DNA from: Schmidtea nova
Lineage: Eukaryota
NCBI GenBank assembly: GCA_044892505.1
Contig: CM097882.1
Coordinates: forward strand, 265,918,001-265,982,000
Direction: 5' to 3'
Length of the DNA stretch: 64,000 bases
Shown: piece by piece, positions 1,786-59,619 of the stretch
Numbering within the stretch: position 1 is the first letter of the stretch
Layout: every line of letters starts with the position of its first letter
Notes under the pieces: model-generated
Told to the model about the DNA's origin: nothing
What the model saw: only the letters and a program-made list of their open reading frames with translations
Database searches by the model: none
Position numbers and translations under genes: made by a program

Positions 1786-2215
1786 TGTGAGACCCCAGGT
1801 TTAACTCTCAAGGTTGAATAATTTTTTCTTTGACGTTTTTTATGAAAATTTTGTTAAGGAATCGGATTCAGCGTATTGAATTTGATATAAATAGAAATTT
1901 TGGTTAAAATCTGACAAGTATTAGTCGAGAAAATCATTTAAAATTTTTTTATATGTGAGAGGCCCAGGTTCAACTCCCACTTTGGACTAATTTTTTTTCC
2001 TATTTTTAGTAACAAATTCGGATTCAGCATATTGAATTTGATATAAATAGAAATTTTGGTTCAAATCTGACAAGTATTAGTCGAGTAAATCATTTAAAAT
2101 TTGTTTTTATATGTGAGAGGCCCAGGTTCAACTCCCACTTTGGACTAATTTTTTTTTCTATTTTTTGTAATAAATTCGGATTCAGCATATTGAATTTGAT
2201 ATGTATACAAGTTTT
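1786..2215. repeat. Tandem repeat, about 158-168-bp unit, about 2.5-3 copies, carrying a tRNA T-arm-like motif
   Basis: TGTGAGAGGCCCAGGTTCAACTCCC at 1954 and 2112, degenerate copy at 1786; shared flanks TCGGATTCAGC...CTGACAAGTATTAGTCGAG. Confidence 0.8.
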
Positions 2216-2580
2216 GATAAAAATCGGACCATAATTGACTAATATTGAAATAAAGATAAATTAATTAAAAAAATAAATTTGATTAATTTAAATAAAATTA
2301 TCAAATACTACTGATAAAGTAGTTAGTACACAGATTGTATAAATTTGTATATTTTTATATAAAAACCATTCCGGATTATTTTTTTACCATTAAGATACTT
2401 GATTACATAGTTCTTAAATAATGGCATGAATTAAGAATAAAAATATATGTTATATCTTTAAACTTTTATGGACTTCATGAAAGCATTACGAATCTGAATC
2501 CTTATGAGAAATCTTGCATTTATATAACTTGAAAACTAAATAATTATAATACTAATCTAGATTTTCGAAAGTTTAATGGA

Positions 2581-2960
2581 TCGCAGTTGAGCGCAGCGGG
2601 CGGATGGCAGATGGCGGTTGGTGGTCGGCGGTTGGCGGTTGGTTGTTGGCGGTGGGCGGTTAGTGATTACCTGATGGTGTGTTGGTCACTAAGTGTGCCG
2701 GTTACTATCCATAAGTGTGCTGGCCAATAAGCATGTCTGGCACGCGCGGATGATGCAATGGTCAATAAGTGTGCCGGGCACGTGCGAATGATGCAAAAAA
2801 TTTCTAAAAGTAGTAGTTGCCATTGGCAACACGTGCCATAAGTGTGTCTTTGCACAAGTGCACTGGTCACGTACGAGTGATGTAATGGTCAAGTGTCCGG
2901 TGTTATGTAACTTTAAAAAATTTAAGGGGGGGGTACTGTATCTGACGGGGACACATCCTA
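2581..2960 (+). mobile_element. GC-rich island with AAGTGTGCCGG-type sub-repeats ending in a polypurine tract plus TGT (possible 3' end of an LTR element)
   Basis: GGCGGTT repeats at 2610-2660; several AAGTGTG(C/T) motifs at 2690-2900; G-run PPT-like tract at 2924-2933, then TAC and TGT at 2937. Confidence 0.35.
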
Positions 2961-5551
2961 CTACTAATGAAATTCCCTTCAATTTTGATTTTTTCAAATT
3001 AGTAAATTAATTTCAAATTTTTTGTGTTCAATTAACATTTTCTCCTTTTAGCAACTCAAATCTCCTGAGGTGGAAGATCACTTCTCCACCGAACTGAAGC
3101 AAGCGTCAATGCAAATCGCTGCTCTCGCCTATCAGTAGATAATCAAAATCGACTTTAATAATTTCTAAACTAAAGTAACTTCCACATTATTTTCTTTGGT
3201 TTATTATTAAGATTTTTATTTTTAGCATCAATTTACCCTGAGGTTTCTCCACATTTACTGGGTTTCGTTTAGAATTTTTTGATTCTATGAAAGTTTCGCT
3301 TTGGATTTTAACCTGCCCTTCGTTATATTCTCTGGTACGGTTAGCTATGTGATTAATTTTATCAATTTTCCATGGTTTCACTTTTGATGGACTTAATACG
3401 ATTTACTGTAATCTTTTCTATTGTATAAATTTGTAAATAAAATTTTCTTTAAAAATATTTTCTTTGATTTTATTTTTATCATTATTAGTAATGCTCTATG
3501 ATTTTATTGTGAATCGATTGGATTGTCTTTATTGGTACGACACCAAAACATTTTTAAAGTAATAAAGCTTTTTATTAGGTATGGATATAAATCGTTGGCA
3601 AGTTAATGAATGAATGGGACAGAGATTTCATATGCCGTTGACTTACAATGTGAGTTCTTGGTTTACAGATATTTCGGGTTTTATTTGGGACTAAATAAAG
3701 TTCAAGTTCGCGAGTTTTCCTTTTTTTTAATATAATTTATTACAAAAAAAATATATATTGTTCGTGTATGTTTTTCTTTAAGTGAAAATTTCAGTATTCC
3801 ACCGATTTTTAGCATACTTATGATTATCTGGCAGTTCGAATTATGCTTTAAGTACTAGGTCGCGTTGATTTTCGATTTTGGGAGGGGTGATTTTGGTTTC
3901 GGTGTTCATTTAGGAACCGTTAGGGGTTAAATACTATCTCAGGGGCCTTTGTTGAGTTAGCTATATCAAAACCAATTTTTTGTCGAAGTGAATTGTATTC
4001 AAATTTGTATGGATGTGGGACATGTTGTGGTTCGGCGAGGTAAATTGAAAACAAGTTCGGGGGTGTGTGTATGTATATTTTATAGTACGTTTGAAATGAA
4101 TGCCTTATTGTTAAGATTTTTTGGGATTTTGTGTGTTTGTATGTTGGGAATGATACTGTGGTAATAGGCTATAAACAATGGGCGGGATTATATGAATATT
4201 TGTGGGGATCGTCTGGATGTATGTTGCTAGCGGATATCGTGAGATGAAATCATGTTGTGTATGTTGGTGAGTGAATGTATTGTTTATGGGATTATTTGAT
4301 ATAGAAAATCCTATTGATTGAAATGTGGTAGGGTGTGTGTGTTGGTGACTGAATGTATTTTGTATTGTATCAAGTATGGGTGTTACTATTGAATGAAATG
4401 GGTGTAAATTTTTGCAAATAAGGATGCATTATGATTTGGAGATATCGTGGGGGTATTTTATGAAGTAATATAAATTTTATAAATACTAAATATTTTCAGA
4501 AATTACAATAATAATAATATTTTTATTATGATTTTATAAATTTTTAAATTTATAATTTTATGAAAATAATAAAATTTCTAAATTTTTATAATTTACATTT
4601 CGAATTCAAATTTTTATATTTTAATATATATATTAATCGTAAAATTTTTCTATAAAATCTCGAACTTAAAATTTTACAAAATGATAAAAATTTTCAATAT
4701 AATAATATTCTCGATTTACAATTTTTATGGGTTTCAATACAAGTTTTGATTTATAAATTCTTAGGAATTTTATAAGATGACAAAATCTTTTATATAATAA
4801 CAGTGTCTTAGATTGGTAATTTTTAGATGTTCGATATAATTTTTTTGATTTACAAATTCTTTGGAAACCAATTTTTTGGTTCACAATTTTTTATAAAAAA
4901 TTTTTCAATATAATAAAAAGTAAATTTTTATTTTTTGATCAACACGAAATCCACATAATAATAAATTTTTATCCATAAATTTAGAAATCCAAATAAGCAT
5001 TCAACCTAAAGGTTTTATATACTGAATAAAAATATAAAAATAAAATAAGTTATCAATTTTTCATGAATACTTTTTTCGACATAGAGTAAAGTGAACTTCG
5101 GTTTCGTTCAAGCATGAATTTCCCAATCAAAGTGCGCGCGAATTTTTCGGGACACTTCACTTAGGAACTTCAGGCTCCCGAAAACAAGGTTCACTGGAAA
5201 ATTATTTAGATAATAAATGAGGTTTAATTCAGATTAATCAACACTTGTCTTCACAGTTCATTTCATTTCGTGATCATTATATCAGTTTTGAGCATTATTT
5301 CATATGATTCTTTTTCCAACATTAGCTTCCATTTACTTGCGTTTCGGATAAGATGACAGTTGTTGCAAGAGTGAAGGCGACGACGAGTAAAATGTTCTTG
5401 TTCCATTATTTTTCCTAATGGAAAAGACATTGCTGGAGAGAATCGTCTTTACGTTTACATGTGGTATTAATTTTTAAATGATAAATATGTCAGAAATTAT
5501 AAATTCAGATAAACTACACTTATTATAAATTAAATATCATTAATATAACAA

Positions 5552-10543: not shown

Positions 10544-11574
10544 AAAGTCCAGAGCAGTATGTTATTTGATCATTTAATAATATTTTTATTTCCACCTAAA
10601 TTATGTTTTTAATATTTAAAATTCCTTTTTAGTTAACAGATTAGTGATTGAAGTTATCGACTTATTTAAATTGTATTTAAAGTATAAACCTATATAATAT
10701 TATGTGATTGCTGAAAATGTATCAATTTATCGAACACTGTTCACTAAATGAGATACTTCAAGATCAAAATCAAAAGTGAAAATTTTATGACATGCCACAT
10801 CTCTTAATATTTGCCACTTTTAACTTTGCCATATAAATAGCTTTGAATATCTCTCTCACGGGTTTCCGCATAGATATTACTCTGGTCATCCAACAAATAG
10901 TTAAAATTAAAATTAAATTTTAACATTTCTAAACTTTTTTTATAACAAATGGAGTTATTCATTCATTTCATCTACCGGATTTATCCCTCCCTCCTAACCA
11001 CTGCTTATTGTCTTTGGAAATGTCTCATTAACTATTAATAAATTACCTTGGTTTGCGTTTTCCAAGTTTTTCAGACCCACATTGCTAACATGATTTTTTC
11101 TGCCGATAGTACTGTGGGATGCTTGGTTTCTCAATCATATTAAACCAGTTTTTAATTAGGAATCTCCATTCTGGGTCCTTTAGTATTTTTGGCATAATTC
11201 TTTTCATATGCTGGTTTGAATACAACCTTTTAATGCATCCTTGGCAGGCAGAAACTTTTCATGTTTCATAGAAGTTGTCCTTGATCATTCGATGGACGTT
11301 CTTGGATAGATCTTTCACATCGTGTATGGCTGTGGTTTTCTCTTTGGTTGAGAATTTTGTTCGGGTACCTAGTCAGTTGTTTTTGATTATGAATTTGATT
11401 TTTATTTAGTGTGATTGGACCAGGCTTTTAATAATGTTTTTTGATTCTAGTTTGCCAAGTTGATTTGGTGCCATACTTTGTTGACGCTGGCCATATATAT
11501 ATATATATATATAATCATAATTATCTTTTTTCACCTTTGATCTTTTTTTATTATTATTATCAATAATTCCCATA

Positions 11575-11735
11575 ATGACTATAGATCAAAAATTTTTTAT
11601 AAACAATAACACAATATTTTGGCACAGCCTTTATCAAGTGTGTATTTGAAATACATATATTGAAATACACACTTGATAAAGGCTGAGCCGAAATATTGTG
11701 TTATTGTTTATAAAAAAATTTAGATCTACAGTCAT
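11575..11735. repeat. Fold-back (inverted) repeat of a Penelope-type terminal segment, flanked by (TA)n
   Basis: Arms 11575-11647 and 11663-11735 are reverse-complementary; (TA)n runs at about 11494-11512 and 11748-11770. Confidence 0.85.
11669..11701 (+). ncRNA. Minimal type I hammerhead ribozyme motif, U3-A8 core variant (Penelope-associated type)
   Basis: ACAC TTGATAA A GGC-TGA-GCC GAA ATAT T GTGT: stem I ACAC/GTGT, core UUGAUAA, stem II GGC/GCC, GAA, palindromic stem III ATAT, cleavage triplet AUU. Confidence 0.6.
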
Positions 11736-11992
11736 CATTATTGATAATATATATATATATATATATATATAAATAATTTTAAATTTCACAATGAAACTGC
11801 AATTATCTCACATTTATACTAACTATAAGGTTAGGGGTTAAAGACATGAAACATTTGGAAAACGCCGATATAGGTAACTTAGTGAGACATTGCCAAAGAT
11901 AGTGAGCAATGGTGACAAGGGAAGGGAAAACTTTATCGAAATCATGGAGAAAATTAATTTTAAAAGATGAATAACACCAAGAAATGACCCAA

Positions 11993-12433: not shown

Positions 12434-12775
12434 TTAATTAAATAATCTCAATAAATTCGTTGCTGATTGAATATTAATTGTAGGGGATTGTGATTTAATC
12501 ACCAACGCCTCACATAAAATTCTTTCCCATTTATTGTTAAAGTTTTTTAATATAATTTTAAAATCTTTTAAATCAGTTTCTCCTTTACACATTTTTCTAT
12601 GCTCAATAAAATTACTCACACCTTTCAATCGGCTATGTTCCTGAACCCGTGTGCGGAGATGACGGGAAGTCTCTCCAATGTATGTGGCATTGCAGCCATT
12701 ACATGAAAACTTATACACTAGATCAGACACTAAACCTATTGGGGTTTGAGATTTAAATCTTTATCACATGTCAAT
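12434..12775 (-). mobile_element. Penelope-like retroelement 3' fragment (GIY-YIG endonuclease domain)
   Basis: FKSQTPIGLVSDLVYKFSCNGCNATYIGETSRHLRTRVQEH...LCEALVIK...PTINIQ: VYK...YIGET motif, RxxEH, catalytic E and N typical of PLE GIY-YIG. Confidence 0.92.
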
Positions 12776-19400: not shown

Positions 19401-19667
19401 AACTTGAAATATTAAGAAAGTGTATCAGTAATATATGTATACAATGTGTGTATGTTACTGGATAAAATTAAAATATTGTGTAATTGATCGAAACTCATCA
19501 TGGGAAATGTTAATATTTGTTGTTAAAATTGTAACAGTAATAAATATGTGTCTAATAAGCTTAGGTAGATAAAAAAAATCACAAAAGAGGTTGTGCTAGA
19601 AAGGTTCTGCTACTGAATAAAATTGTAAAAATAATAAGTGAAAATGAATCTTTCAAACATCAACGTA

Positions 19668-19782
19668 GGTTCTGTTTTATCTTTCATTTCGGAATGGGTT
19701 TCACGATATGGCATTCCAAGACAAATTATTAGCGACAGAGGAGCGCAATTCGAATCACAGCTCTTTACCTTTTTATCGGAAA
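19668..19782 (+). mobile_element. pol: Gypsy integrase core, 5' piece (continues at 22194)
   Basis: SFISEWVSRYGIPRQIISDRGAQFES contains the second catalytic D (SDRG) of the rve domain. Confidence 0.9.
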
Positions 19783-19962
19783 GCAGTGCTTCGTTCCATG
19801 AGTGTTTAATGGACATCGCAACCACACCAAAAATCAGAATACCTTGGTGTGATTTCCGGTTGCTGGGTATGAGTAATGATTATATTTTGGATATAATTTC
19901 TTCAATCGAATGTCAACAATTTCCATTGTCATGTCATCAGACAAATCCGACATAATCTCACA

Positions 19963-20130
19963 CCAATCCATCAAAGAGTGTTTTGGAGTCTTTATTATTA
20001 TGTCGATGTATCTGTTGTTTCATTGTATATTTTATGCACCATAATAGCTCTCGTTAGTAATGTTTGGATATATATTTAACTGTATGTGTTTATTTGTGTC
20101 CGTTTGAATTAATAATTGCTAATTTTGATT
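19963..20130 (+). pseudogene. Captured C-terminal fragment of a hydrophobic (membrane?) protein
   Basis: Open frame PIHQRVFWSLYYYVDVSVVSLYILCTIIALVSNVWIYLTVCVYLCPFELIIANFD*; no recognisable family. Confidence 0.3.
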
Positions 20131-20444
20131 AAATAAACTAATATGTTTGTTGATAATAACATGATATACTATGATTAGAGATGTTATAATCATTTAATGC
20201 CTTGTCTTATTTATATGTAATGTTGTGTAAATTATCTATGTAAAAATTTTGCAATACTTAATATTTTGTCATTTTTATAAATAAAAAAAACGTTTGTTTA
20301 TAAAAGGTTAGCGGATACCGCAGAATAAATTTAAAAGATATGAGTTATCGAGTTTTTGATAAATAAATTAAAAAATATATTTATTCAATTCAAAAGTACC
20401 TTTGACAACTTTAATTCAAAATTATAGTTAATAAATTATAAATT

Positions 20445-22145
20445 ATGGATTCTATGGTGTGTGTTCATGATAGATATTATGAATGCTTTCTAAAAACAGC
20501 TGATTATAAACTATTGAGGATATGCTTCAAATGTTTATCGACTATTGTGAAAAACAATCAGCAATTCAGTAGATTGACTAGAATGAAATATCTACAAGAA
20601 TCATTTGATTTGATATCCAACAGTTTGGATATAAGTTCTTCAATCGAATGTGAACAATTATGTGAGATTATGTCGGATTTGTCAGATGACATGACAATGG
20701 AAATTGTTGACAATTACAATGAATTATGCTGTAAATTAATAGTACTGATGTTAGAGCGGGTTGATGAGAAATTGGCAATGAATTGTTTGTGCAAATATCT
20801 AGACCATAATCAGGTTGATACTAGCAACGACAGCAAATACCTAATGATTATCAAGTCACTTTGCATTCATCCACATTCGCTTTTGATGGCATTTGCCCAC
20901 GGCAATAAAGGCAAATTTTTTCAAGATCTTGCAATGATGCTGGGTATGAGTAATGATTATATCAAATGCGTTGTTTGCTACATCTTGGATGTGCTGATTG
21001 ACACGGACCCGGAACTGGTCTCCTGCCTGAAGATGGAAGACATCCTGTCTACTGGTTGATATCATTATCAACCGCGATATCATTGCCAGTCACCACCTGT
21101 GCACCAATGCGACAATTTTAATGATAATTTTACTACGAAGCAGTGCTTCATTCCATGGATGTTTAATGGACATCGTGCAAACTTCCTTCGTGATACGAAA
21201 ATTGATTCTGTCATATGATAAAGAAATTGTTTACGCGAAATACGGAATAAAAATTCCGGACTTACTACTGTCTTCCGAATCCAATGGCGATATAGTTGCT
21301 CATTATTTCACGCAGTCATCAAACGTTACAGAGTACTTATTCGATCTCCTCATTACTGGTAAAAGTTTAATACCGCGCGTTATTAAATGTCTGAAGGCAT
21401 TTGTCAATTGTAAAATATTCTGTCAAACAAATATTTGCACATATGGTTTGACAAATGTCCTACGGTGTTGCCAGAACTATCTAGACGTTCAACATGTAAA
21501 AACACAAGAATTAAAAATCGCCGTTACTGATATTAAAAAAATAACATTAAATATATGGTTTTATGCAAATTATGGAATTATGAATGGACCAGAATCAGAC
21601 AATTATATCAACGCAATCCGATTTATTATACAAGCATCTTCTAATAAGAAAGCCTTCAGTGGAACACTCCCTTATGAGATCCTTCTTGGGGGATTACCCG
21701 ATGATTTCAAGCGACCTTTGGTTTGTCCTGGAATTCATCTTACATTTCTATTTGGCATAACTGAGTGTATGGTAATAATTTTCCATAAATTGAATACAAC
21801 TTATAAATATCCCAAGACACCCAAATTTACCGCATTAGGAGTAATAACCGATAACATTAAAGTGACGAGAAACTATAATATCGATAAAATCACTTACTAC
21901 GTACGTTTCTTGGAGCCAAATAGATATAATGTTCCATGCCTTTTAAAAATAATTATTTCCGAATATTGTCCGGTGATTCAAATTCAAAGTGAAAGTTCAA
22001 TTCACAGTTTCAAGTCCCCATACACAAATACAGTTGCCAAGCAACACAAACTTCGGCCACCGGAACTCTACGAAGTAGTATTGAATTTATTTGTAGAATT
22101 ATTTAAAATTAGTTTCGGGGGAACAAAAATAAAATTGATGAATCG
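20445..22145 (+). pseudogene. Intronless about 570-aa helical-repeat (ARM/HEAT-like) protein gene with one frameshift near 21030-21057, truncated by fusion to integrase
   Basis: ORF 20445-21059 and the frame of 21121-22239 (open upstream as VDIIINRDIIASHHLCTNATILM) overlap. Leu/Ile/Cys-rich amphipathic helical pattern; family not identified. Confidence 0.6.
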
Positions 22146-22193
22146 GCAACCACACCAAAAATCAGAATACCTTGGTGTGATTTCCGGTTCATC

Positions 22194-23200
22194 AAACTTG
22201 GCATCAAACGACTGCGTTCGACTGCATATCATTTGCTGACGAACGGCCTCATCGAGAGATTTCACCGGACACTCAAGCAATCGCTACGTATACTTTTTCT
22301 AAACTATCGCTGGACAAAAGCTTTGCCTTTTGTGTTATTGGGTTGGAGAAACACACCATCCAAGACAACCGAATCGTCCCCAGCTCAATTACTCTTCGGT
22401 TCCCGACGAGCTCATCGACTTCGGGGAGCAACCAACGATCTAAGAACTTATTACCGCCAGACGTCATTTCCTTGAAATTGATGGAAATCCAATCTTTTCG
22501 TCAGCAAACACCGAAAAACCTTTTTATACCGAAATCTCTATCTTCTGCTAAACACGTATGGATTCGTGCTATCGCTGATTTTGCACTAAAGCCTAGATAT
22601 ACTGGACCATTTCGACTATTAGGTATAGTCGGGAACTTTGCAACAGTCGACATTAACGGTTCATCCGAAACAATCTCTCTCACACTTATTAAACCGACAT
22701 TCGGACTTTCGAAATTTGTCCCTACTTTAACTACTTTAACAAACAGTTCAGCACAGACCAATAAAAAATCTGTCAATTCGAGATCTCCACCCATTCTTCC
22801 AGACGTGGATTTAACTATTCCTTCACCGATCGTGCTTACTGAAAATACTTGTTCGCACGAAGCAGATATATCTTCTACACATATAACCAATTGGCCTTCT
22901 AGCTCTGATGGCAAGAACACCACCGGTAGCCCGGAAACAATCGGTTCACCGGCTTACAACGAAACTCCTAGACCACTTTCAATTTTGAAAGAATCTCCCA
23001 TGGCTCATTCTAAGACTGCTTCTACTACAAAGCATCGCGTCACAATCAATCCATGGGTTCGCGAACGCCGTATAGGAGATAATCCTAACGCTCCAACTAG
23101 ACTGCATCGAATACTGTGAATATAATCTTTTCGATCTTTCCTTTTACCTTTTGTTTCTCTTGTCGCCGCACTTGCGTTTTCTTTACCACATGTTGTTCGG
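22194..23200 (+). mobile_element. pol: Gypsy integrase 3' piece and long C-terminal tail (frameshifted)
   Basis: KLGIKRLRSTAYHLLTNGLIERFHRTLKQSLR...ALPFVLLGWRNTPS; PRYTGPF (GPY/F motif); tail ...RRIGDNPNAPTRL resembles 32365-32400. Confidence 0.93.
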
Positions 23201-24199: not shown

Positions 24200-24494
24200 T
24201 GTGGTGATATAATTAATACATAAATAAATAAAATATTTATATTAAAAATAAATTCAACAATACCAAACGTTTTTTTTTAAAATACAACCAAATTAAAACA
24301 AGCGTTAATACTTTCAAATTACATTATCTTTCAATGCACATAGTGAAATAGTTTTTTAATTAAACATTCTTAAAACCTATTTAAAAATATTACATTTAAA
24401 ATAGTTTAAATAAAAATGAATATAATAAAGTATATATTTAATTTATATTTAATATAAATATTATATTTATTTATATATTAATTATATCACCACA
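24200..24494. repeat. 295-bp TG...CA element with about 45-bp imperfect terminal inverted repeats
   Basis: TGTGGTGATATAATTAAT / ATTAATTATATCACCACA; no TSD seen. Confidence 0.6.
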
Positions 24495-26788
24495 GAAAGT
24501 ATGTGTGTGTAATAAGAATTGAGAGATAAAAACCATCACAAAAGACATTTTGATACTAAAGGTTCGGATAGAAAGGTTCTTCTAGCATGAAAAAAATTAT
24601 TGGAAATATATATAATTACACAACGCGGAGGTATATAAAACGAGCAATAAAACAAAAATATCAAAGTCTTAAAGATCATCACACCAATAAAATAACAAAC
24701 ACACAATATCATCACACTATAGAATTATATGGGCGGTCTGTTCCACTACCCACACGTGTGTTCTCATATTTTTAATTAAATTAAAAATAAAATTCATGTC
24801 TTTGTATTTTAAATTAAAACAAAAAATTCGTATAATTAAAACAAAAAAATTTGGTTAATTTAAACAAAATTTTACTTTATATAAACAAACATATATGTCA
24901 TTATATATGTCATTACATAATCACCGGATTTGTTAAACATTTAATTATATGATTAATATGTAATTATGTAATTAAATGTAATTGTGTGAATATATAATTA
25001 TGTAATTATATAATTAAAAAAGAGGAATAAATGAAGATCATATAAAGGTCAAAATGGGTTATTTAGTTATCTAGACATATGTAGTAGACATGTAGGAGAA
25101 GCCATATAAAATTTTTTTCAACCTGATAACAATTTAATTTATTTATAAAATATTTTATTTCTCATAGATGAAAAGCTTTCAATAAAATAAGATACTTTTT
25201 AAAACAAATTTTATATAATTATGAAGAACTCTGTAACTCGTTAAATATTTTTCTATATATTCTATTTTGATCATGGACACAACTTTTTGATTATATTTCA
25301 AAGATTATAAAAATATAATGTGCTGGTTCTACAAGGAACTTTATTTTATATTTATAAAAATTGAGGTGCGTGTTATACACAGTAAATTAGGGTAAATATA
25401 ATCTATAATTATTAATATAATTCGTGTGGTTGCGTGTAATATTTATGTTTCAATAGATTAAAAACAACTTTCTTTTTCCAAAATAAAACGATTTATTACA
25501 GTCAAATTTATAATATGTTTTTACAATTGAAAGAGCAATACAAAAACGGGATTTTGTAATCCTTGCTGTTTGTTGCAGCCTGCTTTAAATCGTTGGCTCC
25601 TATGTAGGACAAAGATCGCTCAAATAATTTAACAGAAGATCGATAAGTTAGTTGAAAGGATTTTGGCGGACCCAAAGTAAAGAACCCTTCTTTGTATTCG
25701 CTTAATTTTAATAAAAGGGATAAAATTTATCCTTCATTATGCGCCCTTTAATTCAATTTAATTTATAAAATAATAATAATTACTCTGTTTCTGGAATTTT
25801 TCGTTTTCAATTTTTTCTTTCACTAAGAATTTGGCCTGATATTAATATGATTTTCCCCAATCAGAAATCCAGGTGTATTCTAATTGTTTCTCTCATGGGC
25901 TTGAATTTTAGACTCTCTACGCTAAATTCAAGATTTCCTTTTCACTACTTCGATTATCGATTCCATAATTTTGAGCACTCAAACAGCTGCTTTCCTACTT
26001 TATTACTACTAATCCAATTTATTATTTTTCCAAAAGTACTTTTCGCTGCTAATTTTTATTATCGCTCGCACTAAAAATTGATGTCCGTTGTTTTATGTTT
26101 TACTAATATTTATATCATTTTTAAACTATAATTTTTATTTTTGGTAATTCCAAAATTACTATATATAGGGTTATCATAATTTCTCCAAGATAGATCAGTT
26201 CTATTTTTAGTAATTAATCAAAGTTTATTTTTATTTTAAGTAATTATCTATTTCTATTATTGTAATTATTCTATTTTTAGTGATTTTTAATTCTTTGATG
26301 TTTAAGACAAAGGACCAAGTAATTTTGGATTAATTTATGGTTCTTAGTGAATTGCATGATTCGAAATAAATTAAATATTACCCAAAATTTTATTTTTAAT
26401 ATATGGGCTTATACGTGGGTCATCTATTTTGGACTTTTTTCAATTATGCGATTCACATAGAACCCTAAATTAATCCAAAATTACTCGGCCTTTACGCGAA
26501 TATATACGGTTATTCAAAAAGCAATATATTATGTACGATTGACAAATTAAATAAGTAAGCTAGTGAAAACATTTTAGACAATAGAAAAATCAAAATTATT
26601 AATTTAAATTCTTTATTAATTATGAAAAATATTGTTTATCCTTAATTATAAAAATATCGGTTAACCGGTTAACTGGTTAATTAATTATTTTTTAAATCAA
26701 AATTTCCTTTTCTTTTCGATAAGAAATAATCTGCAAGCCTGACAGTATTTTCTTTCAGTGGCTAAAATGATATTTATTTGTGAGACAT

Positions 26789-28031: not shown

Positions 28032-30698
28032 CAGGGATGGCGAACCTTTTTTTGACTGCGTGCCAATAAATATTATTTTTATAAAATGAAAATACATGCG
28101 TGCCAATACAAATTATTTTTATTAAATGAAAATACATGCTTTTAAAAATTATATATAGATTCATTTCTATAATATGCTGACATATTTTTTAATGGGATTT
28201 TTGTTGCTGAATATTCCTCGATAATGCATCAATATCCGGATCATAGTTTGACAATTTTAATGAAATACAAGCCTCCCCACATTCATCGGTAAGTCTGTTT
28301 CGTACATCAGATTTTATATTATTCATAATCGAAAATAGACTTTCACAGCTATACGTTGATGAAAATATTGTTAGAATAGCTAAAGACAATTTCTTCATCG
28401 CATTAAATGTTTCTGGGAGCGAACACCATGTCTTCAACAACATATTATTCATGTTTTCGTATTCTTCTTCATTTAATCTTTTTTTTTCATTATTTTCTAT
28501 TTCTTGCCTTAACTCTATAAATTTCAGCTTCCAAATAGAACTTGATTGAAACTCTGCCAACTGCATTTCTAAATTCTCCAACTGCATTTCTAAATTCTCC
28601 AACTGTAACCAGTCTAATTGATCCATTTTAGCAGTTTCCAAATCAAACTTGTCTGGATATTTAATAAAGTTAATTAATGGTTGAAATTTTTTGAAATCTT
28701 GAAATCTCTTAGCAAAATTGTCTTGTATGTCACTTATAACTTGGCTATAAAAATTTATATTAATTTCATAGACTCCATGAATAGAAAATTTTTGAAGGTG
28801 ATCTTTCAACAAAGGAAAATACTTAAAATTATTGTTGTCAATATCGCGTTTAAATATTACTAATTTGGACTCAAAACCTTCAATAATATCGAACATTACA
28901 TCAATTGATTTTCCGGGACCTTGCAATTTAATATTTAATTCATTTCAATCGTTGGAAATATCCGTTAAAAACATTAATTTGGTGATCCAGTTATTATCAA
29001 AAAGTTCAGGAAATTCGGTTTTTTTATCATTAAGAAACATGATAATTTCATCAAAACATTCTACAAAACGTTGTAACACAAATCCTCTACTAAGCCAGCG
29101 TACGTGATTATACATTAACAATCCATGATAATTTGAACCTACCTCTTGTAGAAGCAACTGAAATTGCCGCTTATTCAAAGCTCGAGCTGCTATAAAATTT
29201 ATTATTTTGGAAACAATACTTGAAATATCATCAAATGCTGCCAATCCAGACTTCGCACATAGAACTTCTTGATGAATTATACAATGAAAATTAATAATTG
29301 GATGCCCAACGTGTTCTTGAAAAAGAGATACAAAACCAGCTTGCCGTCCTATCATTGAGGGAGCTCCATCAGTTGTAATTGACACTATTGTTGATGTATC
29401 TATCTCAGCTATTTGAAACGTTTTTATAACTGCATCACTAATATCTTTCCCAGTCGTTTTTGCTGATAAGGAAACTAGTGAAAGCAATTCCTCAACTATT
29501 TTTTTCTCCTTTAGCATAACGAGCAATTATGGACAAGCGAGCTGAAGATGTTACGTCGTTACTTTCATCAAGACATATAGAAAATAGCTTTGCTGAACGT
29601 ATATCATTTATTTTTTTAATATTAATATTTTTATGCATTTTTAATATCCTGTCTTTAACAGTATTTCGACTTATACTTAATTCTTCAATGCGCTTAAGTA
29701 TCTGCTCTTTATTTTGAAAATCTTCAAATAAATGTGGTGCACATTTAATGAAAGCTTCTTTAATATAATCTCCATCGCTAAATGGTTTGCTATGAGTAGC
29801 AATAGTCTTGGAAACCTCAAAACTAGCAGCAACTAAATAATTTGTATGTTTCAAAAATGTAATAAATGAGTTTGATTGTAAAAATCTATTTTTAACTTCA
29901 CGTGCAATATATTCTTTTTGTTCTAAATCACTTTTAGATAAAAGAAATGAATGAGTAGTTTCATAATGTCGTTTTACTGAGGATGTTCTGCACACTACTG
30001 TATTTCCACACAACGCACACAGGGCATTGTTATTGCTTTTCATCATTCCATATTTATCAGTCCACCAATCTTGAAATGGTCTTTTAGAGCTGGCCTCTGT
30101 TTTCCTTTTCTTATTTTCTGACATTCTAAAGTTGAAACATATTATTTATTTATCATTAAAATTGTTAATGAATTACCTTTTGAAATCAATTATAATTGTC
30201 TTCTAAAAATATAAATAGATTTTTTTTATTAGCAAAAAATAATACTAAAATAAGAAAACACAATTTTCAATCGCACTTACAAAGTTTTTAACTGAACTGA
30301 ATTAGAATTAGTGAATTTCAATTTTGGCGAGAATGCAAATATTCATATATATATGTATGTATATATTTGAAAATCCAAAGCATACTATGTTCATTTTAAC
30401 ATTTTTTTATATTTAAAATTACATGTTCATACTTGTACATACCTATACCTACATACGCAAATAATATAATTATATTTTAACGTTATGAATAAAGGCGCCA
30501 GAAATCTGGAAGTTTGTTTTTAAATATCAAAATTTATGCATTAAATTTGAATTGAGTTCACAATTTTTTCAATATCAAAAATGCATTTGGATTAGTCAGT
30601 ACATTACATATGTATGAAAATGAAAAATATTATACGTGCCAGCGAAAATTTATCTGCGTGCCACTTTGGGCACGCGTGCCATAGGTTCGCCATCCCTG
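28032..30698 (-). mobile_element. Complete hAT DNA transposon (Buster group, SPIN/GTF2IRD2-like transposase), 2,667 bp
   Basis: Perfect 16-bp TIRs CAGGGATGGCGAACCT; perfect 8-bp TSD TTCTACAA (28024-28031, 30699-30706). Transposase 30124-28189 with BED-like CxxC..H, LDESND, ITTDGA, FHCIIHQE, RW, STYSCESLFS; one A-run frameshift near 29500 and one in-frame stop at 28945. Confidence 0.98.
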
Positions 30699-31645
30699 TT
30701 CTACAATTTGATATGGCCAAATTCCAAATTTCATCCATAGTCGTTTCTGTGTTTAAAATCTCATTGCTCACAATTTTTAACAAAACTTCTGAACTATACA
30801 AATTATTGATATTTACAAACACTAAAGGTAATTTAATAACTGGCTTTAAGATTTTTGAACAGCTGGCCTTGGAGTTGATCTTTTCACAATAGTCCATTCA
30901 CAAGTCATCGTTTTTTTGCAAGTTGTAGTTTGGATTCTTATTGATGATTTTGCTGACTCTCACTCTATCTTTTAGAGTTTCGTCAAAAGAACTCTCGAAG
31001 TCTCCAAGAGTGTCCATAATGTTCCAAGAAAGAGATTCATTGAGCGTAGTATTAAGCTAGTCCTCTGTGATGATGAGAGGATCTTCGTCAAAATCTGATA
31101 GCACTTGTAATTTGTCAATTTCTGCCAGAATTTCTATCTTTAGCGTATCTTCCTGTCTCTGAAAGTTGAAAATAGAATTCTCCGTACAATACTTTTCAAA
31201 TCTTAATCCTAAGTACATGCCGACTCCCACTCTTCTTAATGTAGATTTTTCGAAATCAAAAAGTGCTCTCAATATTCCCGAGCCAACTACAATTGCACCT
31301 ACAGTGATTTTCTACCCTTTCGATCTTTTCTTCAGAGCCCGCAAGTACTTGGCTATTGCTAAGCTTTCTCTAGTAATTAAGCTTGATTCCTTGGCTGTAT
31401 TTACTGTCTTTAGCTCGATCACCATATAACCATCATTACCTTTAAATATAAAGTCTGGCGTCAGATTTTGATATCAATCGGCAACATCATCCACAATGTT
31501 CACAGATTGATCTGTTTTTGAACTACCAAATAAAATGTCAGCGATTAAATTATGTTGTAATCTTGCTATTTCTTTTTTGCTTAGAACTAACCTATTGCAT
31601 CTCACTAATTTTTCGCTTGCGGTTATTTGATTCATCAGTTTAATG
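30699..31645 (-). pseudogene. L: Endogenous bunyavirus (phenuivirus-like) L protein, upstream segment with cap-snatching endonuclease
   Basis: Single frame with 4 stops: LQHNL (H 31554)...KTDQ...NLTPDF (PD 31458)...VIELKT (E 31416, K 31410)...AIAKYLRALKKRSKG*KITVGAIVVG...KPVIKLP; rejoins 28023 in frame once the hAT is removed. Confidence 0.88.
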
Positions 31646-32291
31646 AATCGACATTGCAAATAATTTTAGGGGTAATTGTCGATTCATTAAAATTAAATTT
31701 TGACTCGTAAAAAGTAATAAATAAATTGAATAATACTTTGCGGTATTCCAGTGATTGAAGTTGCTGTTGCGACTGTATAAAACGAACTGCTTCGTAATGG
31801 AAGCCCAAAGAGTTTGTTTAAACATACAAAACAATTTAAACAAATACATTTTATAATTAATACTATTAATATTAAAAATAAATAATAGTTCATAACAAAA
31901 TGTTGGATTGTTTGACGGAGACACGTAGATTGAAAAAATAAATAGATTTTTTTTACATTGAGATTATCTAATTTTCTTCAAGAATTTATTAATATGAAAA
32001 TATCATTCTTGGTCTATTTTTTCAATCTCTTGTTATTAATCGCTCTTTGATTGAATGGAACTGAAAGTGGAGGTCAATTGGACGGATTAGACAATTCATA
32101 AACAATAATGTTCGCTTTCGAAATTATTAGGAAACTTCAGCGATTTGTTGTCATGGTTATTATTGACAAATTTAGATGGGTGCTGAGTATCAGTAGACGT
32201 TGTAAAAAAATCAGTATTTTTGAAAAGTATTTTCGCGACAAGAATATTAGGAACAGATGCGAGAGAAGGAATGATTAGGAATGGAAATGAT
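31646..32291 (-). repeat. 646-bp direct repeat, downstream copy (putative non-canonical 3' LTR)
   Basis: Near-identical to 36653-37298 (about 2 differences seen); begins right after the PPT GGGGGG(TA). Confidence 0.9.
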
Positions 32292-33136
32292 TACCCCCCA
32301 TCCAGAAACGCTGAGCGTTTTTAAAAAAAAATTTAGAAATGTTAATCTTGATGACAACCCCAAGTTACAAATCGTTGGTTCTAGATAAGCGAGTTGGTAA
32401 GTTTGGGTTTTCGCCGATTCTTTTAGTTCGGTCCCAGTCTGCTATACGAACTTTCTTGATTTGTTGTACTTTGGGTATCTTATTCAATGGTTTTAGAATG
32501 GGGTTCAGTGTAGATTTTGGAATAGCAGTAGGTTGAATATTTATGTCTTTCGACTGTTCCAATATAGTTGCAGGGATAAACCATGTGTTATCTGGTTGAG
32601 ATGATTGTGTTGGCCTCTGAATTGGAATTTGGTTTTGGTTAGATCTTTATTGTAATGTACTGGGTGATGGGCTTTCAATTTGTAACGATGTGACTGATTA
32701 ATTAGTTATGAGGGGTGGAGTGCTTTCGTTTTTGATTGAAAGCAATTTTGGTGGTAATAAAAATTGATGAGGTAAACGAACGACGGTCGGGTTATCCTTC
32801 TGGAAATTATGAATTTGTGTGGTGAATGGTAGTATGGGGTGTTTCAGCCAAAGTTTGCCTGAACAAACTTTGGCTGTTTTTGCTGCATGTGTATTTTTCA
32901 TTTTAAAGCGTCTGTGTGCGCTACCACCAATTGATCAGCGTCTGTGTGCGCATTTTTTAATTGGAGTTATTTTGGATAGGTAAATTTGTAATTTGGAGTT
33001 TAATTGATTTTTAGATTTAATTTTAAGAATTTTTAGATTAGGTTTATTATTGTTTAAATACTCCAATGGAATTTAATTTAGTTTTGATTTGGATTTTAGT
33101 TTCGATTTGGGTGAATTTAGGAATGGAGATCTAGAT
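32292..33136 (-). mobile_element. pol: Gypsy integrase low-complexity C-terminal tail, 3' UTR and polypurine tract
   Basis: ...KKVRIADWDRTKRIGENPNLPTRL resembles the 23119 tail; CGCTCAGCGTTTCTGGATGGGGGGTA PPT at 32292-32317. Confidence 0.75.
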
Positions 33137-33820
33137 TTGTTTCTTTTGAATATTCTTATGAATTCTGGCAAAAAGGTGTATCGAAAATGGAATTTTCATT
33201 GTTTAACTATCCTTTCGCATTCGATGGTATTACGAAAACTCATTTGATGAAAATTGAGGCTAAATGCTTAATGTCAGAAGATTTACCATGCTTCGTAGCA
33301 CAAAGCAGTTTTCATATTACTGTACGAAGAGATAATTTGCTAGGTGATACCGTTAGCCAGTTGCAGCGTGCTTCTCAATGTCACCTTAAAAGGCCATTTA
33401 GGGTTAATTTCATGGGTGAAGATGCTTTAGATGAAAGCGGGGTAATGAAGGAATTGTTCTTACTTGTTGTGCCTCAAGTTTTAAATCCCGATTATGGTCT
33501 CTTTGAAATGTATCCTGAATCAAGACTCTGCTGGTTTAACAAAATGATATTTGATGATAATCTACCGCAGTTTAATGCAATCGGTAGATTGTTTGGTCTG
33601 GCAATTTACAATAATGTTATGATTGATCTTCACTCTCCTCTTGTAATGTTCAAAACATTGTTCAATGAAAAGGCTAATCTAGATGATTTAATCGAGCTCA
33701 ATCCAACCTTGGGGAAATCATTACAGACGTTACTTTATTTCGGTCAAGATGATTTTGAGAATATATTCATGCTTAATTTTGTTATTCCCCCCGGTTCATT
33801 TGACAATAAAATTGAAAGGA
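33137..33820 (+). pseudogene. Captured HECT E3 ubiquitin ligase fragment (small HERC3/4-like N-lobe), antisense to the host Gypsy
   Basis: FNYPFAFD, VRRDNLLGDT, LKRPFRVNFMGEDALDESGVMKELF, NPDYGLF..YPESRLCWF, IGRLFGLAIYN, DDLIELNPTLGKSLQTLL. No C-lobe or catalytic Cys; no introns. Confidence 0.93.
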
Positions 33821-36652
33821 TGTTGCGTTCTGTTGGAAACATGGGGTCTGGAGGATTTGGCGGTGTAAAGTCTTGTGTCTCAGAATGAAATGTAATATTT
33901 GTAGGACTGAGGTCTTCTTCCACATAACCAAAAGCTGGCTTGAGACGGGCTAGATTTATAATTGAATCTATTCCATTAATGGAAACTTTTGCAGTGCTGT
34001 TATCGAATATTTGGAGAAGAGGACACGGTCCTTCATAGCGTGGTCTTAGGCCTATATCAGCAATTGAACGGATCCATACATGTGTTGCGCGATCGAAAGA
34101 TCTGGGAATATATGGCTTGTAAGTGTTAGCCATTGAAAAGTTTGGGTTTGAGTCCAAAGATAGGAAATGATTTCTTGCATCAGCTAGGTTTTCTAAAGTT
34201 GGTTCAGAGTTTAGCTCGACGAGTTCGTTTGGTAAAATGACGTCAGTACCAAACATGAGTTGTGATGGAGAAGAACCAGTTGTTTTCGATGGCGTATTGC
34301 GCCATCCTAGTAAAACAAAAGGTAAGGCCTTTGCCCAGTTCTTTGAAGTTGAGAGGATTCGGAGGGATGCCTTGAGTGTGCGGTGAAACCGCTCGACAGC
34401 TCCATTTGTTTGTGGGTGGTAGGCACTAGTCCTGAGGTGTTTAATTCCTAGTTGTGCAGAAAGTTGTTTAAAAAGATTGGATTCGAACTGGGGTCCTTGA
34501 TCGGTAATGAAATGTAGAGGAACACCAAATATCGAGATCCAATGTTCTATGATCGTCGATGCTACAATCTAGGCAGAAATAGATTTTAAAGGATCTGCGA
34601 CTGGGAAACGAGTTTTTCTGTCCAGCATGGTTAGTATATATGTGTAACCGTTGTCTGGAGGAAATGGTCCAACAAGATCAACATGCACCACTTCAAAACG
34701 GTTTCCAGTTGGAAAGCTATGTAAAGGTGGGCGAGTATGACTGTGGATCTTGTGTTGTTGACATCCTAAGCAAGATTCACACCAGTCTTTTGCGTCCTGT
34801 CTCATACTTGGCCAAATGACACGAGAACGGAGTAAGTTATATGTTGCAGAAATACCGGGGTGATGAAGGTTATGGGTGTGATTGAAAGCTTCGCGTCTTA
34901 GCTTTTCTTGCAAAATTGGGCGGATATTTCCAGATAAGGCGTTGTCGTAATAGATGCCTTTATCAAAAAGCGTTGTATTTTGGAAGAATGACAGGTCTCT
35001 TGCGGAAGGTGGTAAAGACCTGAGAACATCATCAGTGAAGATCGGCTCAGTAGTGATAGTTGCAACAAGATTTCGCGATAGATAATCTGCTACAATATTC
35101 TGGCGACCTGGAAGAGAGTGATAGTGAACGCAAATTCTGATAAGTAACTAATTTGACGTCCCTGTCTTGGTGAAGGAGTCTTCATTTCCATCATGTGAAC
35201 TAGAGGTTTATGGTCAGTTTGTATAGAAAAAGATCTGCCTTCGAGGAGATAACGGAAATGGCGAACTGATTCATATATTGCTAACAATTCGCGGTCGAAC
35301 TTGGAATAGCGTTGTTCCTGTGCAGTTAATTTACGTGAAAAAAATTCAATTTTCTCCTGTCAACCTGTGTTGTTTTGTTCGAGAACTCCAGCAATGCCAA
35401 TGTTGGACGCGTCGGTAGTTAAAAATAGAGGTAGGTTGCTCTTTATGTAGGACAAAGATTGTGCAGTAGAGATTGTGTCCTTAACGGATTGAAAAGCTCT
35501 TTCAAGTTCGTCATTTTACGGTAGGAGAGAGTGTTTTGGACCGCTACAGAGAGCAGAAAGAGGTGCGGTGACCTCGGATATTCTTGGGATGAATCGGTGA
35601 CAGAAATTAACAGTTCCTAAGAAGCTGCGCATTTGGGAAACTGTATTTGGTCGTGAAAATTTGCGGATTGTATCTAGGCGTTCTGGAAGTGGTCTTACTC
35701 CGGAAGTCGATACAAGACGCCCAAGAAATCTAATTACCGATTGAAAGAAAGAACATTTGTCCAAGTTAATTTGCAAATTGTTATTGTGTAGTAACTTGAA
35801 CACTTCTTTGATATGTTCCAAATGTTCCGTTGCATATTTGGAGCTGATGAGGATGTCGTCGATGTATGCCACCATATATTTCTTGTCCCTTAAAATATTA
35901 TCGATGTGTCGCTGGAAGGTTTGAGCTGGGTTCCGTAGACCGAATGGCATGTATTTGTATTCGAACAAGTCAAAAGGGGTAATGAAGGCGGTCTTTGGGA
36001 CGTCTTCTGGTGATACCAGGATTTGGCGGTAAGCCTTTTTTAGGTCTAGGGTAGAGAAGATTGTAGCTTCAAGTAATCTCGAAAGAACGTCTGATATCAG
36101 CGGCATGGGACAAGAGTCATGTACAGTGACTTTGTTGGGGCGTCTGTAGTCACATCAGGCGCGAATAGATCCGTCTTTTTTTGTAACCACGTAGATGGGT
36201 GATGCCCACGGGGAATGCGATCGGTGGATAATACCGGCTGCGAGTAGCTTATTGAATTCTTCCTTGATAAGTGTGAGCTTCTCGGGCGCGAGTGGTCGCA
36301 TGCGTTCTCTAAGAGGCATACCGTTATTGGTGACTATGACGTGTAGAAAAGAGGGAGTTTGTTGGTGATTGTTTGATCTAATTTCGACGTTTGGAAAAGT
36401 CTTTAGTAGTTGTTGTTTACAGTAAGGTGTGGCGAGTAGGACATTGAGAGCGTCGCTACAGAGATGGTCAAGAACTTGAGCTCTAGGTGAGTGCTGTGAA
36501 AGGATTAATTTGCGTTCTCTACAATCAGTCAGTAAACCTTCAGCATCGAGAAAATCGGCACCTAAGAGTGGATGAATGACCTCGGCGACTTGGAATGTCC
36601 ATGAAAAAGTTTTAGACAGGCCAGGAATTCGGAATACTAAATTCTTGGTTCC
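33821..36652 (-). mobile_element. pol: Ty3/Gypsy pol (partial protease, RT, RNase H, integrase), several frameshifts; gag and protease N-terminus absent
   Basis: PLLGADFL; SPWASP; LDLKKAYRQ; YKYMPFGLRNPAQTFQR; YIDD; TDASNIG; RELLAIY; TDHKPL; HNLHHPG..CESC; VHVDLVGP; TDQGPQFES; TNGAVERFHR; PRYEGP. Confidence 0.97.
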
Positions 36653-37298
36653 AATCGACATTGCAAATAATTTTAGGGGTAATTGTCGATTCATTAAAAT
36701 TAAATTTTGACTCGTAAAAAGTAATAAATAAATTGAATAATACTTTGCGGTATTCCAGTGATTGAAGTTGCTGTTGCGACTGTATAAAACGAACTGCTTC
36801 GTAATGGAAGCCCAAAGAGTTTGTTTAAACATACAAAACAATTTAAACAAATACATTTTATAATTAATACTTTTAATAATAAAAATAAATAATAGTTCAT
36901 AACAAAATGTTGGATTGTTTGACGGAGACACGTAGATTGAAAAAATAAATAGATTTTTTTTACATTGAGATTATCTAATTTTCTTCAAGAATTTATTAAT
37001 ATGAAAATATCATTCTTGGTCTATTTTTTCAATCTCTTGTTATTAATCGCTCTTTGATTGAATGGAACTGAAAGTGGAGGTCAATTGGACGGATTAGACA
37101 ATTCATAAACAATAATGTTCGCTTTCGAAATTATTAGGAAACTTCAGCGATTTGTTGTCATGGTTATTATTGACAAATTTAGATGGGTGCTGAGTATCAG
37201 TAGACGTTGTAAAAAAATCAGTATTTTTGAAAAGTATTTTCGCGACAAGAATATTAGGAACAGATGCGAGAGAAGGAATGATTAGGAATGGAAATGAT
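36653..37298 (-). repeat. 646-bp direct repeat, upstream copy (putative non-canonical 5' LTR)
   Basis: Identical boundaries to 31646-32291; followed on the minus strand by GG of protease codons ATT GGA ACC. Confidence 0.9.
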
Positions 37299-37556
37299 GT
37301 GACAACAGAACATTACAATCATTTTATATAAAAGTCGATTCGCATTTTATTTCTGCTCGTCATTCATATTATTAACTTCCTGATTTACTGCACCAGTTTA
37401 ATTGACATTTTCAATCATATTTCCATTTTGCCTAATTATCAGCATAAGGCCTTCGTGAAAGGTAATTATTCGTAATAATTTCATTTAATCAATAAATCCT
37501 TTAATCAGTGTAATATCAATTTATTTATATAAATGACCAAATTTGAATATTTTGAA

Positions 37557-54779: not shown

Positions 54780-56000
54780 TGATATCACAGAAGATGTTGG
54801 GAAATGGTGCCATACTTGTGAAATATGCCTAACTTGTCGAAATACAGGTAGAAAATAGAAGTTCGTCAAAAAAAGTATACTGGTTACCGAAGCTGCAACG
54901 GAAATAACATCAATGTACATTTCTGGTCCATTACCTGGAACAAATAATGGCAACAAACATATCATTGTATTTTGTGATTATAAAACTATAAATTTCCAGA
55001 AGTTTATCCATTGCAAAAGCAAAAGGCGGAAACAGTTGCAAACATCTTTGTAGAAAATATTATCTTCCATATGGAGCTCCAAAGAAATTATTCAAAGAAA
55101 AAGGAAAAACTTTTCAAAGTGATTTATTAAGCGGTTACATTACCGAAATATTTCGAATAATAAAATCATCGTATCACCCTCAAGTAGGCGGTCTAGTTGA
55201 AAGATTTTAGGGAACATTCATAATGTTCACCTACAGTCGGGAACAAATTAATAGGGACACTATCATTTTTCTCCGTTTTCCCAAATAACGAGATACATCT
55301 TGTAGTAATCGAGTTAAAACCAACACACAATACATGTTATATGCAAAGCAGAAATCATAATATTGATAAAATGTTTTTAAAATTTAAATAGAAAACAAAG
55401 GTATCAGGACAATATCCCATCGGACAATACCCTCCTGGACAATATCATCTGAACAATATCCCCCATGGACAATACCCACCTTGGACAATCTCAAACCAGA
55501 AAAATTCCCAACATCAATTAATTTAATATTAAAAATTCATTTAACCTAAATATTGCAGTATTGGTTTCGTTTGCGCATTTAGGGCGAAATTAAACTAAAT
55601 ATTGTAGTTTTTTGGTCATTGATTTTGGGAATTTTACAGGGTGGAAATTGTTCAGGGGGTATTGACCGGAGAGATATTGTCCGGGGGATATTGTCTAAGA
55701 GGGTAATTGTCTAAGGGTATATTGTTAGTAGGATGTTGTCGGAGGTATATTGTCCTAGAACTGAAAAAAAACATTTGAATTTATTCACTAAAAATATTTA
55801 CTTACAATTCAAAATACAATGAATAGCAGTACCGATGAAGCATCTTTCAATCTCATGTATTTACGACGAATTAATATGCCAATTATCGTAAAAACTACAA
55901 CGACTGTTTAAAGGATCATATTTAGTATGTGATACAACAAAGACTAATCTAAAATTACGTCCACAAAACAATAAACAGGCTGGAACAATTACATAGGACA
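54780..56000 (+). mobile_element. pol: Decayed Gypsy integrase, interrupted by a MITE
   Basis: WCHTCEICL; SGPLPGTNNGNKHIIV; FPEVYPL..QKAETVA; YHPQVGGLVERF; KLQRLFKGSY (GPY/F) after the MITE. Confidence 0.8.
55400..55762. mobile_element. MULE-type MITE with GGACAAT subterminal arrays
   Basis: Ends GGTATCAGGACAATA / TATTGTCCTAGAACT; inverted GGACAAT/ATTGTCC arrays; 9-bp TSD GAAAACAAA/GAAAAAAAA. Confidence 0.75.
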
Positions 56001-59268: not shown

Positions 59269-59578
59269 CTAAAATATTAATAGTTTGTATTCAATGCATT
59301 CTTGACAATTGAAAGGACAAACAAATGTCTTGAGTAATTTGGCTTGCTTTTTGTATCCATGTAGCATTAGTTTATGAAGATATATAATACGTTCGACATT
59401 GATTCCAGTGGCTTGATAGATTTTGGTACTAGCAAGTTCTGGAGCACAATTTAATATTTCATCCTTAATATCAAGATAAATCTGAGCAATTTAATTAATA
59501 AGGACTTCAATCTGAAATGCTAGACAAAATTAAAATAATAAAGTAAAAATTTTTACCAATATCTGAAACTTGAGACAT
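59269..59578 (-). pseudogene. Small about 90-aa gene with a 37-nt intron and a C-terminal CxxxCxxC cluster; one premature stop
   Basis: MSQVSDI|AFQIEVLIN*IAQIYLDIKDEILNCAPELAS...FVCPFNCQECIEYKLLIF; GT..AG intron 59556-59520; TATAAATA about 35 nt upstream; AATAAA just after the stop. Confidence 0.5.
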
Positions 59579-59619
59579 TGTAAAAAAATGTAAAGTGTGA
59601 AATATTTCTCTGTATTTAT

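Follow-up and report, generated by a model that had tools for sequence, protein, structure and literature searches.

The window analysed here, i.e. the whole stretch of 64,000 nt, has a G+C content of 29.6%, includes 633 N and is rich in transposon remains. Its AT-richness and these remains identify it as eukaryotic repeat DNA. Within it lies a 5'-truncated Gypsy integrase, which is interrupted by other DNA (Table 1). A preliminary description of the region reported a mosaic of five copied snippets at 19781-19962 and missed the insertion; the mosaic is the left junction of an LTR-like element which has inserted in the integrase.

Insertion site

When the integrase of the window's other Gypsy was used as the tblastn query, its residues 5-37 matched 19680-19778, where a weak rve match was also recorded (E 0.044), and residues 39-108 matched 22194-22403, followed by pieces in other frames. 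Since the two halves correspond to consecutive residues of the relative, approximately 2.41 kb interrupts one integrase. Sister contigs were available from four public runs belonging to one study and derived from at most three samples. Uninterrupted copies of the target occur among them: a joint from 19781 to 22195 was found in three of the four runs, as was one from 19781 to 22197, and at least one such joint was present in every run. The bridging joints hold one to three other letters between the two halves. By comparison with these sister copies the loss of target at insertion was no more than 3 nt, and a target duplication is absent. The two bridging records listed show 10 differences in the 103 letters of their left side and therefore represent paralogous Gypsy copies. 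Just upstream, a repeat of very high depth (19541-19681) truncates the integrase on its 5' side; part of this region (19544-19607) resembles 24501-24565.

Table 1. Features of the interrupted integrase, the insert and the mosaic at its left junction
Feature	Position	Strand	Remarks
Gypsy integrase core (5'-truncated), left half	19680..19781	+	Insertion target; located by tblastn with the integrase of the window's other Gypsy
Snippet 1	19781..19818	+	Copy of 21138-21175, 35/38; from passenger ORF 2
Snippet 2	19818..19861	+	Exact copy of 22146-22189, 44/44
Snippet 3	19861..19885	+	Exact copy of 20938-20962, 25/25; from passenger ORF 1
Snippet 4	19886..19913	+	Copy of 20624-20651, 27/28; from passenger ORF 1
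Snippet 5	19911..19962	-	Inverted copy (reverse complement) of 20661-20712, 51/52; from passenger ORF 1
Repeated LTR-like element, ~2.25 kb	19958..22194	+	First ~15 nt absent; right boundary 22194-22197
Passenger ORF 1, 205 aa, helical	20442..21059	+	Source of snippets 3-5
Passenger ORF 2, 402 aa	21031..22239	+	Extends beyond the end of the element; source of snippet 1
Terminal hairpin	22135..22195	.	~24-bp stem, 13-nt loop
Integrase, right half (Gypsy)	22194..23119	+	Frameshifted further on

The inserted element

On the basis of sequence comparisons the insert is read as a long, lone LTR-like unit minus its first ~15 nt, in place of which, including the TG end, the mosaic now stands. Sister contigs fit from 19958 onwards and carry other letters upstream in three of the four runs. 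In two runs the upstream end consists of 15 letters beginning with TG, and this 15-mer agrees at 14 of 15 positions with 37303-37317 (minus strand), the LTR start of the window's other Gypsy. The latter possesses two direct repeats (99.7% over 646 nt) around pol, which are LTRs because the 3' repeat follows a polypurine tract approximately 60 nt after the integrase stop. At the opposite end of the insert, 22028-22163 aligns over ~135 nt to the 3' end of this related LTR with a score of 77 (200 shuffles: mean 29.6, maximum 50). No alignment was obtained between the interior of the element and the related LTR, the homology being found at both ends only. No copy of the 19958-22194 family with paired LTRs was seen, and the term LTR rests on its two ends.

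The termini are TG...CA, the TG being taken from sister contigs and the CA lying at 22193-94, where the related LTR has TA. The right end is intact: the terminal hairpin is complete to 22195, and the integrase resumes at 22194-22197. Folding energies for the two strands of the hairpin are -16.7 and -17.5 kcal/mol (z -4.85 and -6.10). All twelve of its outer pairs also form in the related LTR, two of them changed on both sides (n=2 sequences); this covariation is not significant, being reached by 126 of 500 shuffles and drawn from two sequences only.

The summed contig depth in run X1, which is not a copy number and is used only to show repetition, was 56,000-70,000 at 19964-20245, 161,000 at 22079-22219, 1,500-34,000 over 20387-22078, and 1,900-3,500 over the integrase. 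No sister loci of the element were found in metagenome or viral collections, and the two metagenome matches to its 20-nt end motif were both 22-nt chance matches in contigs of 50-53% GC.

Passenger ORFs

Neither of the two passenger ORFs possessed homologs by word search or among metagenome or viral contigs, with the exception of P0001 for ORF 2. ORF 1 had no Pfam match; its atlas leads are ARM-like and weak, and its single-sequence fold model (pLDDT 48) gave no structural match at E<=0.001. A resemblance to the Lines protein was set aside for want of Pfam support. Residues 151-261 of ORF 2 gave P0001 as the sole match (E 1.5e-8; 31-32% over 111 aa). P0001 is ABCA-like by its ATPase domains, and this part of ORF 2 appears similar to the N-terminal region of an ABCA-type transporter, the transporter nature of the matched part of P0001 being judged from its position. 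The stretch 21400-21900 had no homologue among solved sequences. Sister contigs suggest that ORFs 1 and 2 were once a single ORF.

The ABCA-like piece is suggestive of a captured host piece of the kind known from LTR-mediated retroposition (PMC5131818, in the part available), through which, by this analogy, the passenger ORFs probably arose; no parent genes were found. As in that process, the ends of an LTR element enclose partial host-like coding sequence in a non-autonomous, re-amplified unit. In the cases outlined in that part of the paper the host piece replaces the internal ORFs between two LTRs, whereas here it apparently lies within one LTR-like unit.

The five snippets

A blastn comparison of the mosaic with the window returned five snippet matches (E 6e-20 to 7e-7), with coordinates and identities (Table 1) exactly as first described. 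Exact 14-mers of 19990-22300 cover 81% of 19781-19962, versus 8.8% or less in 336 other 182-nt tiles. Among 39 short local matches in the window, a chain of at least three abutting ones occurs in the mosaic only. The five snippets are genuine and far above chance. All five derive from the element and none from the flanks, giving a filler of 177 nt in total; four have the same orientation as the element and one is inverted. The left limit of snippet 1 is ambiguous by the 1-3 nt which it has in common with the integrase target. Snippet 2 was copied from the inner part of the terminal hairpin and ends approximately 5 nt before the right end of the element. The match of snippet 4 continues to 20659, through a 10/11 quasi-palindrome, and snippet 5 shares its final 5 nt (19958-19962) with the element, of which they are the first bases to survive.

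The snippets had been described as copied from the downstream gene. The source is indeed downstream, but it is a repeated LTR-like element and not a host gene, and at 20635 and 21159 the mosaic has the letter of the family instead of the local one. These are two of the five sites at which the mosaic and its local source are mismatched; at both, all the aligned contigs in each of the four runs carry the letter of the mosaic, whereas the other three sites are not among the 40 variants listed. To judge from these letters, the template was either a sister copy or the local copy in its state before mutation. Since the mosaic keeps the family letter at the two sites, it is old, and no chimera of today's locus. 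None of the contigs listed from the four runs spans the mosaic; these runs contain a fraction of 0.36-0.42 of the words, without the private letters of this copy. The mosaic is real-looking and well-preserved, yet unproven.

The ORF at 19638-19955 is open, as had been noted, because snippets 1, 3 and 4 sit in their native frame. An open frame was kept in 3.4% of 20,000 random patchworks, a property noticed post hoc. A functional fusion protein is unsupported, the target being a truncated integrase and the 3.4% figure having been noted after the fact. Splicing as the origin of the joins was ruled out by inspection: the order is scrambled and the GT-AG pattern is absent.

Joins and microhomology

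From left to right the overlaps at the six joins are 1-3 (ambiguous), 1, 1, 0, 3 (exact, within the 10/11 match) and 5 nt. The last of these, at 19958-19962, leads into the element itself and has a chance probability of 0.009 per join. The overlap of 1-3 nt originally given for the joins therefore fits those between snippets with 1, 1 and 3 nt and fails at 19885/19886, where it is 0 nt. Random switches inside the element give a mean overlap of 0.8 nt. At the three inner joins the overlaps sum to 2 versus 2.39 expected by chance [P(sum<=2)=0.59]. Over all six the summed overlap is modestly above chance (P 0.016 for a sum of 12, 0.052 for a sum of 10), the excess coming from the last two joins, i.e. 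from the 5-nt overlap and the inverted 11-mer. An inverted partner like the 10/11 quasi-palindrome within 60 nt exists at 4 of 1655 coding-region positions, and the strand flip at this site is non-random.

Two joins, the strand flip and the join to the element, thus provide the only convincing microhomology. The preliminary description had called the mosaic a clear record of serial template switching with microhomology and attributed it to a process like that of polymerase theta or MMBIR, or to a jumping reverse transcriptase. Templated copying with switches is indeed the best reading; the microhomology stands at the flip (3 nt exact, 10/11; 4/1655 positions) and not at the inner joins (1, 1 and 0 nt), and the mosaic is no clear record of polymerase theta or MMBIR, three of the six joins being without microhomology above chance. 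Overlap of the size looked for in polymerase-theta joining, approximately 2 nt or more per switch, is seen at the flip (3) and where the filler meets the element (5), is ambiguous where it meets the host (1-3), and is missing from the three inner joins.

Origin of the mosaic

On balance we regard it as probable that the element underwent a one-ended insertion, and that serial priming on its own DNA served to repair the free end. The first step would have been the joining of the right end, either through integrase acting at the CA or through end joining. Integrase-independent insertion exists too (PMC11042837, in the part available), and the right end therefore need not be integrase-made; its boundary is ambiguous over 22194-22197, which could hide an overlap of 1-3 nt. 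The free left end would then have been trimmed and exposed as a single strand, and a host repair polymerase would have gone through several rounds of priming on the element's DNA, copying of 25-52 nt, and release. An economical path would use the minus strand of the element as the only template for all five snippets: the 3' end of the host would copy snippets 1-4, that of the element would fold back via the 5 nt of homology at 19958-19962 to produce snippet 5, and the two new ends would anneal via the 10/11 quasi-palindrome. Appending all five snippets to the 3' end of the element leads to the same sequence, and the direction is therefore unreadable. The lone LTR may be a later product of LTR-LTR recombination or may have inserted at its present size.

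Two findings fit this one-ended insertion poorly. The chance-level inner overlaps (1, 1 and 0 nt) do not suit priming by microhomology, and the distance of the templates from the left end (666-2188 nt) exceeds that of the usual flank-adjacent fillers (PMC10923293, from the portion seen). The sequence names no enzyme and does not establish the mosaic as a case of polymerase-theta end joining. The mosaic is a known kind of error-prone joining, of which it provides a new natural example, and no new gene or system.

An unlikely alternative is that a reverse transcriptase, while completing the cDNA, made snippet 5 by folding back and snippets 4 to 1 by subsequent end-to-end jumps between pieces of LTR RNA or DNA, whereby the left attachment end was destroyed and closure was left to host end joining. 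End-to-end jumping is a property of some reverse transcriptases, and the overlaps of 0-1 nt at three joins suit it. Snippet 2, moreover, comes from the last stretch of the LTR, the region with which copying begins in reverse transcription. Host-like sequence is present in the element, and template switching by the reverse transcriptases of LTR elements captures mRNAs; the switch points reported in the accessible part of the same paper (PMC5131818) show microsimilarity in 25 of 29 cases (median 6 bp), unlike the inner joins here. Snippets from gag-pol are absent, and five jumps within 180 nt would be required.

Somewhat more doubtful is the capture of shards, in which a broken chromosome would have received short, degraded cDNA pieces of the element along with the large one, all ligated in series by NHEJ or alternative end joining. 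The inner overlaps at chance level and the absence of a target duplication agree with this, as does the joining of 2-4 fragments at yeast breaks, for which the Ty1 3' LTR is a hotspot (PMC11372161 and PMC11724301, as far as available). Four snippets in one orientation would be expected in 1 in 8 cases if orientation were random, and snippets 4 and 5, whose sources are neighbours, are joined at a quasi-palindrome of the kind found at 4/1655 positions, which points to synthesis.

It is improbable that a normal integration came first and that a later break at the left junction removed the duplication and the tip of the LTR, to be filled from a nearby copy. The chemistry of the filler would be alike, and all templates are local. 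The deletion, however, would have had to stop by chance no more than 3 nt from the original site, the Gypsy flank gave no snippet, and the mosaic lacks the two private local letters, so that the break would be nearly as old as the insertion.

Just as improbable in our estimate, and bearing on the reverse transcriptase again, is that the LTR of this Gypsy lineage ends in a conserved long hairpin which is possibly self-priming, the mosaic representing its reverse-transcription intermediates, stitched by near-blunt jumps of the enzyme. The basis for this is a pair of coincidences, one at either end of snippet 2. The snippet starts within the hairpin, at its 12th base (22146), which we take to be where an 11-nt Tf1-type self-primer would be cut, and the end of the snippet (22189) and the break in the 5' LTR of the second Gypsy (36653) both lie at the base which is homologous in the two elements, 5 nt into the 3' arm (n=2). 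If true, the same activity would build the LTR-borne captured genes (the ABCA-like piece, and a HECT piece behind an LTR-like start at 32651), and scrambled in-frame patchworks would be a repeatable product of the family and no one-off scar.

An artefact, either an amplification chimera or gap filling with repeat reads, is very improbable. In its favour are the gaps in the window (633 N), the high repetition of the family and the lack of a listed contig across the mosaic. At 20635 and 21159, however, the mosaic does not show the local letters expected of a chimera of the present locus. Overlaps of 0-5 nt between pieces of 25-52 nt would also be unlike the joins made by overlap or k-mer assemblers, and the mosaic lies exactly at the edge of the insertion, where it replaces the attachment end.

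Least probable of all is that the insert is a non-autonomous Helentron/Helitron2 (HLE2) of which one terminus failed to join: a terminal stem-loop, a captured gene piece, the missing target duplication and a 9-nt inverted repeat (19958-66/22172-80) would suit it, but the terminal inverted repeats by which HLE2 is searched for have 12-17 nt (PMC11417382, in the part consulted), the one here is 9 nt and subterminal (the left 15 nt, absent in this copy, being judged from sister contigs), it is not seen in the listed ends of the related element, and both ends match a direct repeat which, with a polypurine tract, flanks a Gypsy pol. An HLE2 insertion between T and T would hinge on where in 22194-22197 the right boundary falls. 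A canonical Helitron (HLE1) was rejected, the 5' TC and the 3' hairpin plus CTRR being absent from the ends in either orientation.

Comparison with known systems

The nearest counterpart of a one-ended insertion is aberrant integration of HIV-1 and ASLV (PMC5041404, from the portion available), in which a normal end is accompanied by a truncated end to which multiple viral segments, from either strand, are appended by the host polymerase. Here too one end is normal-looking and the other truncated, segments in either orientation stand at the bad end, and the normal target duplication (4-6 bp) is absent. In contrast to those proviruses this is an old, natural insertion of a piece of an LTR retrotransposon, with five segments of 25-52 nt and an almost unharmed target. 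The model in that part of the paper ends with copying of, and recombination with, host DNA, whereas a host-derived segment was not seen here.

The short templated junction pieces, some of them from the far end, and the repeated priming and release are also features of polymerase-theta insertions and of T-DNA filler. According to the part of PMC10923293 at hand, T-DNA fillers map to the other T-DNA end, and microhomology averages 2.4 bp at filler-free left-border junctions. The present junction differs in that three of its six joins have no microhomology above chance, the filler is 177 nt in length, and the templates lie up to 2.2 kb away. Breaks in yeast (PMC11724301 and PMC11372161, each in part) provide parallels both for the inverted piece, formed via a short imperfect inverted repeat with a spacer of approximately 40 nt (in PMC11724301 a foldback via a 10-nt imperfect repeat with a 41-nt spacer), and for multi-piece insertions of retrotransposon DNA; unlike there, foldback inversion and multi-piece insertion are combined here in a single large-insert junction. 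A literature search over titles and the starts of abstracts, which was partial and is no proof of absence, returned no natural multi-piece filler at an LTR-retrotransposon junction.

The locus is an unusually legible natural fossil, in which an element minus one end still inserted and was patched by copies of itself, in parallel with retroviruses under integrase stress and with T-DNA. It records a single event in a decayed repeat and has no evident function. A scan of junctions in a repeat-rich genome would gauge how frequent such integration of LTR elements is, and strand bias, template position and overlap length across junctions would separate host polymerase, reverse transcriptase and shard capture.

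Other elements in the window

The second Gypsy (31639-37317, minus strand), with LTRs 99.7% identical, has no gag, its 5' LTR being joined directly to the protease. Its 3' LTR has an altered start, the terminal hairpin is perfect (14-15 bp), and there is a possible target duplication of 4-5 nt, dependent on the end chosen. In the tail of its integrase an LTR-like start at 32651 (plus strand; 11/12 nt match to the LTR start) opens a segment extending to ~33790, and a fragment of a HECT ligase comes after it (33121-33888; E 5.8e-19), antisense to the Gypsy. Possibly, this is a second case of an integrase with a gene-carrying insert. Four such matches to the LTR start occur in the window versus 0.5 in shuffles; no 3' end matching the start at 32651 was found, and a further 11/12 match at 30608 (minus strand) is without an identified partner end. 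A second pair of direct repeats (47744-47859 and 50411-50530; 85%) surrounds another decayed Gypsy pol.

Broken transposase pieces lie at 28189-30145 (minus strand); by eye they are presumably hAT/SPIN-like, and the one piece which was scanned had no Pfam match. Long, palindromic, MITE-like elements occur at 11555-11749, 24200-24494, 26309-26493 and 55409-55725, that at 24200 having TG...CA termini and being preceded by a G-run. A GIY-YIG ORF fragment at 12434-12760 (minus strand; E 5.5e-4, below the Pfam cut-off) is, we assume, probably from a Penelope-like element, and a TBP-like ORF fragment is present at 59507-59875 (minus strand; Pfam TBP, E 1.3e-7).
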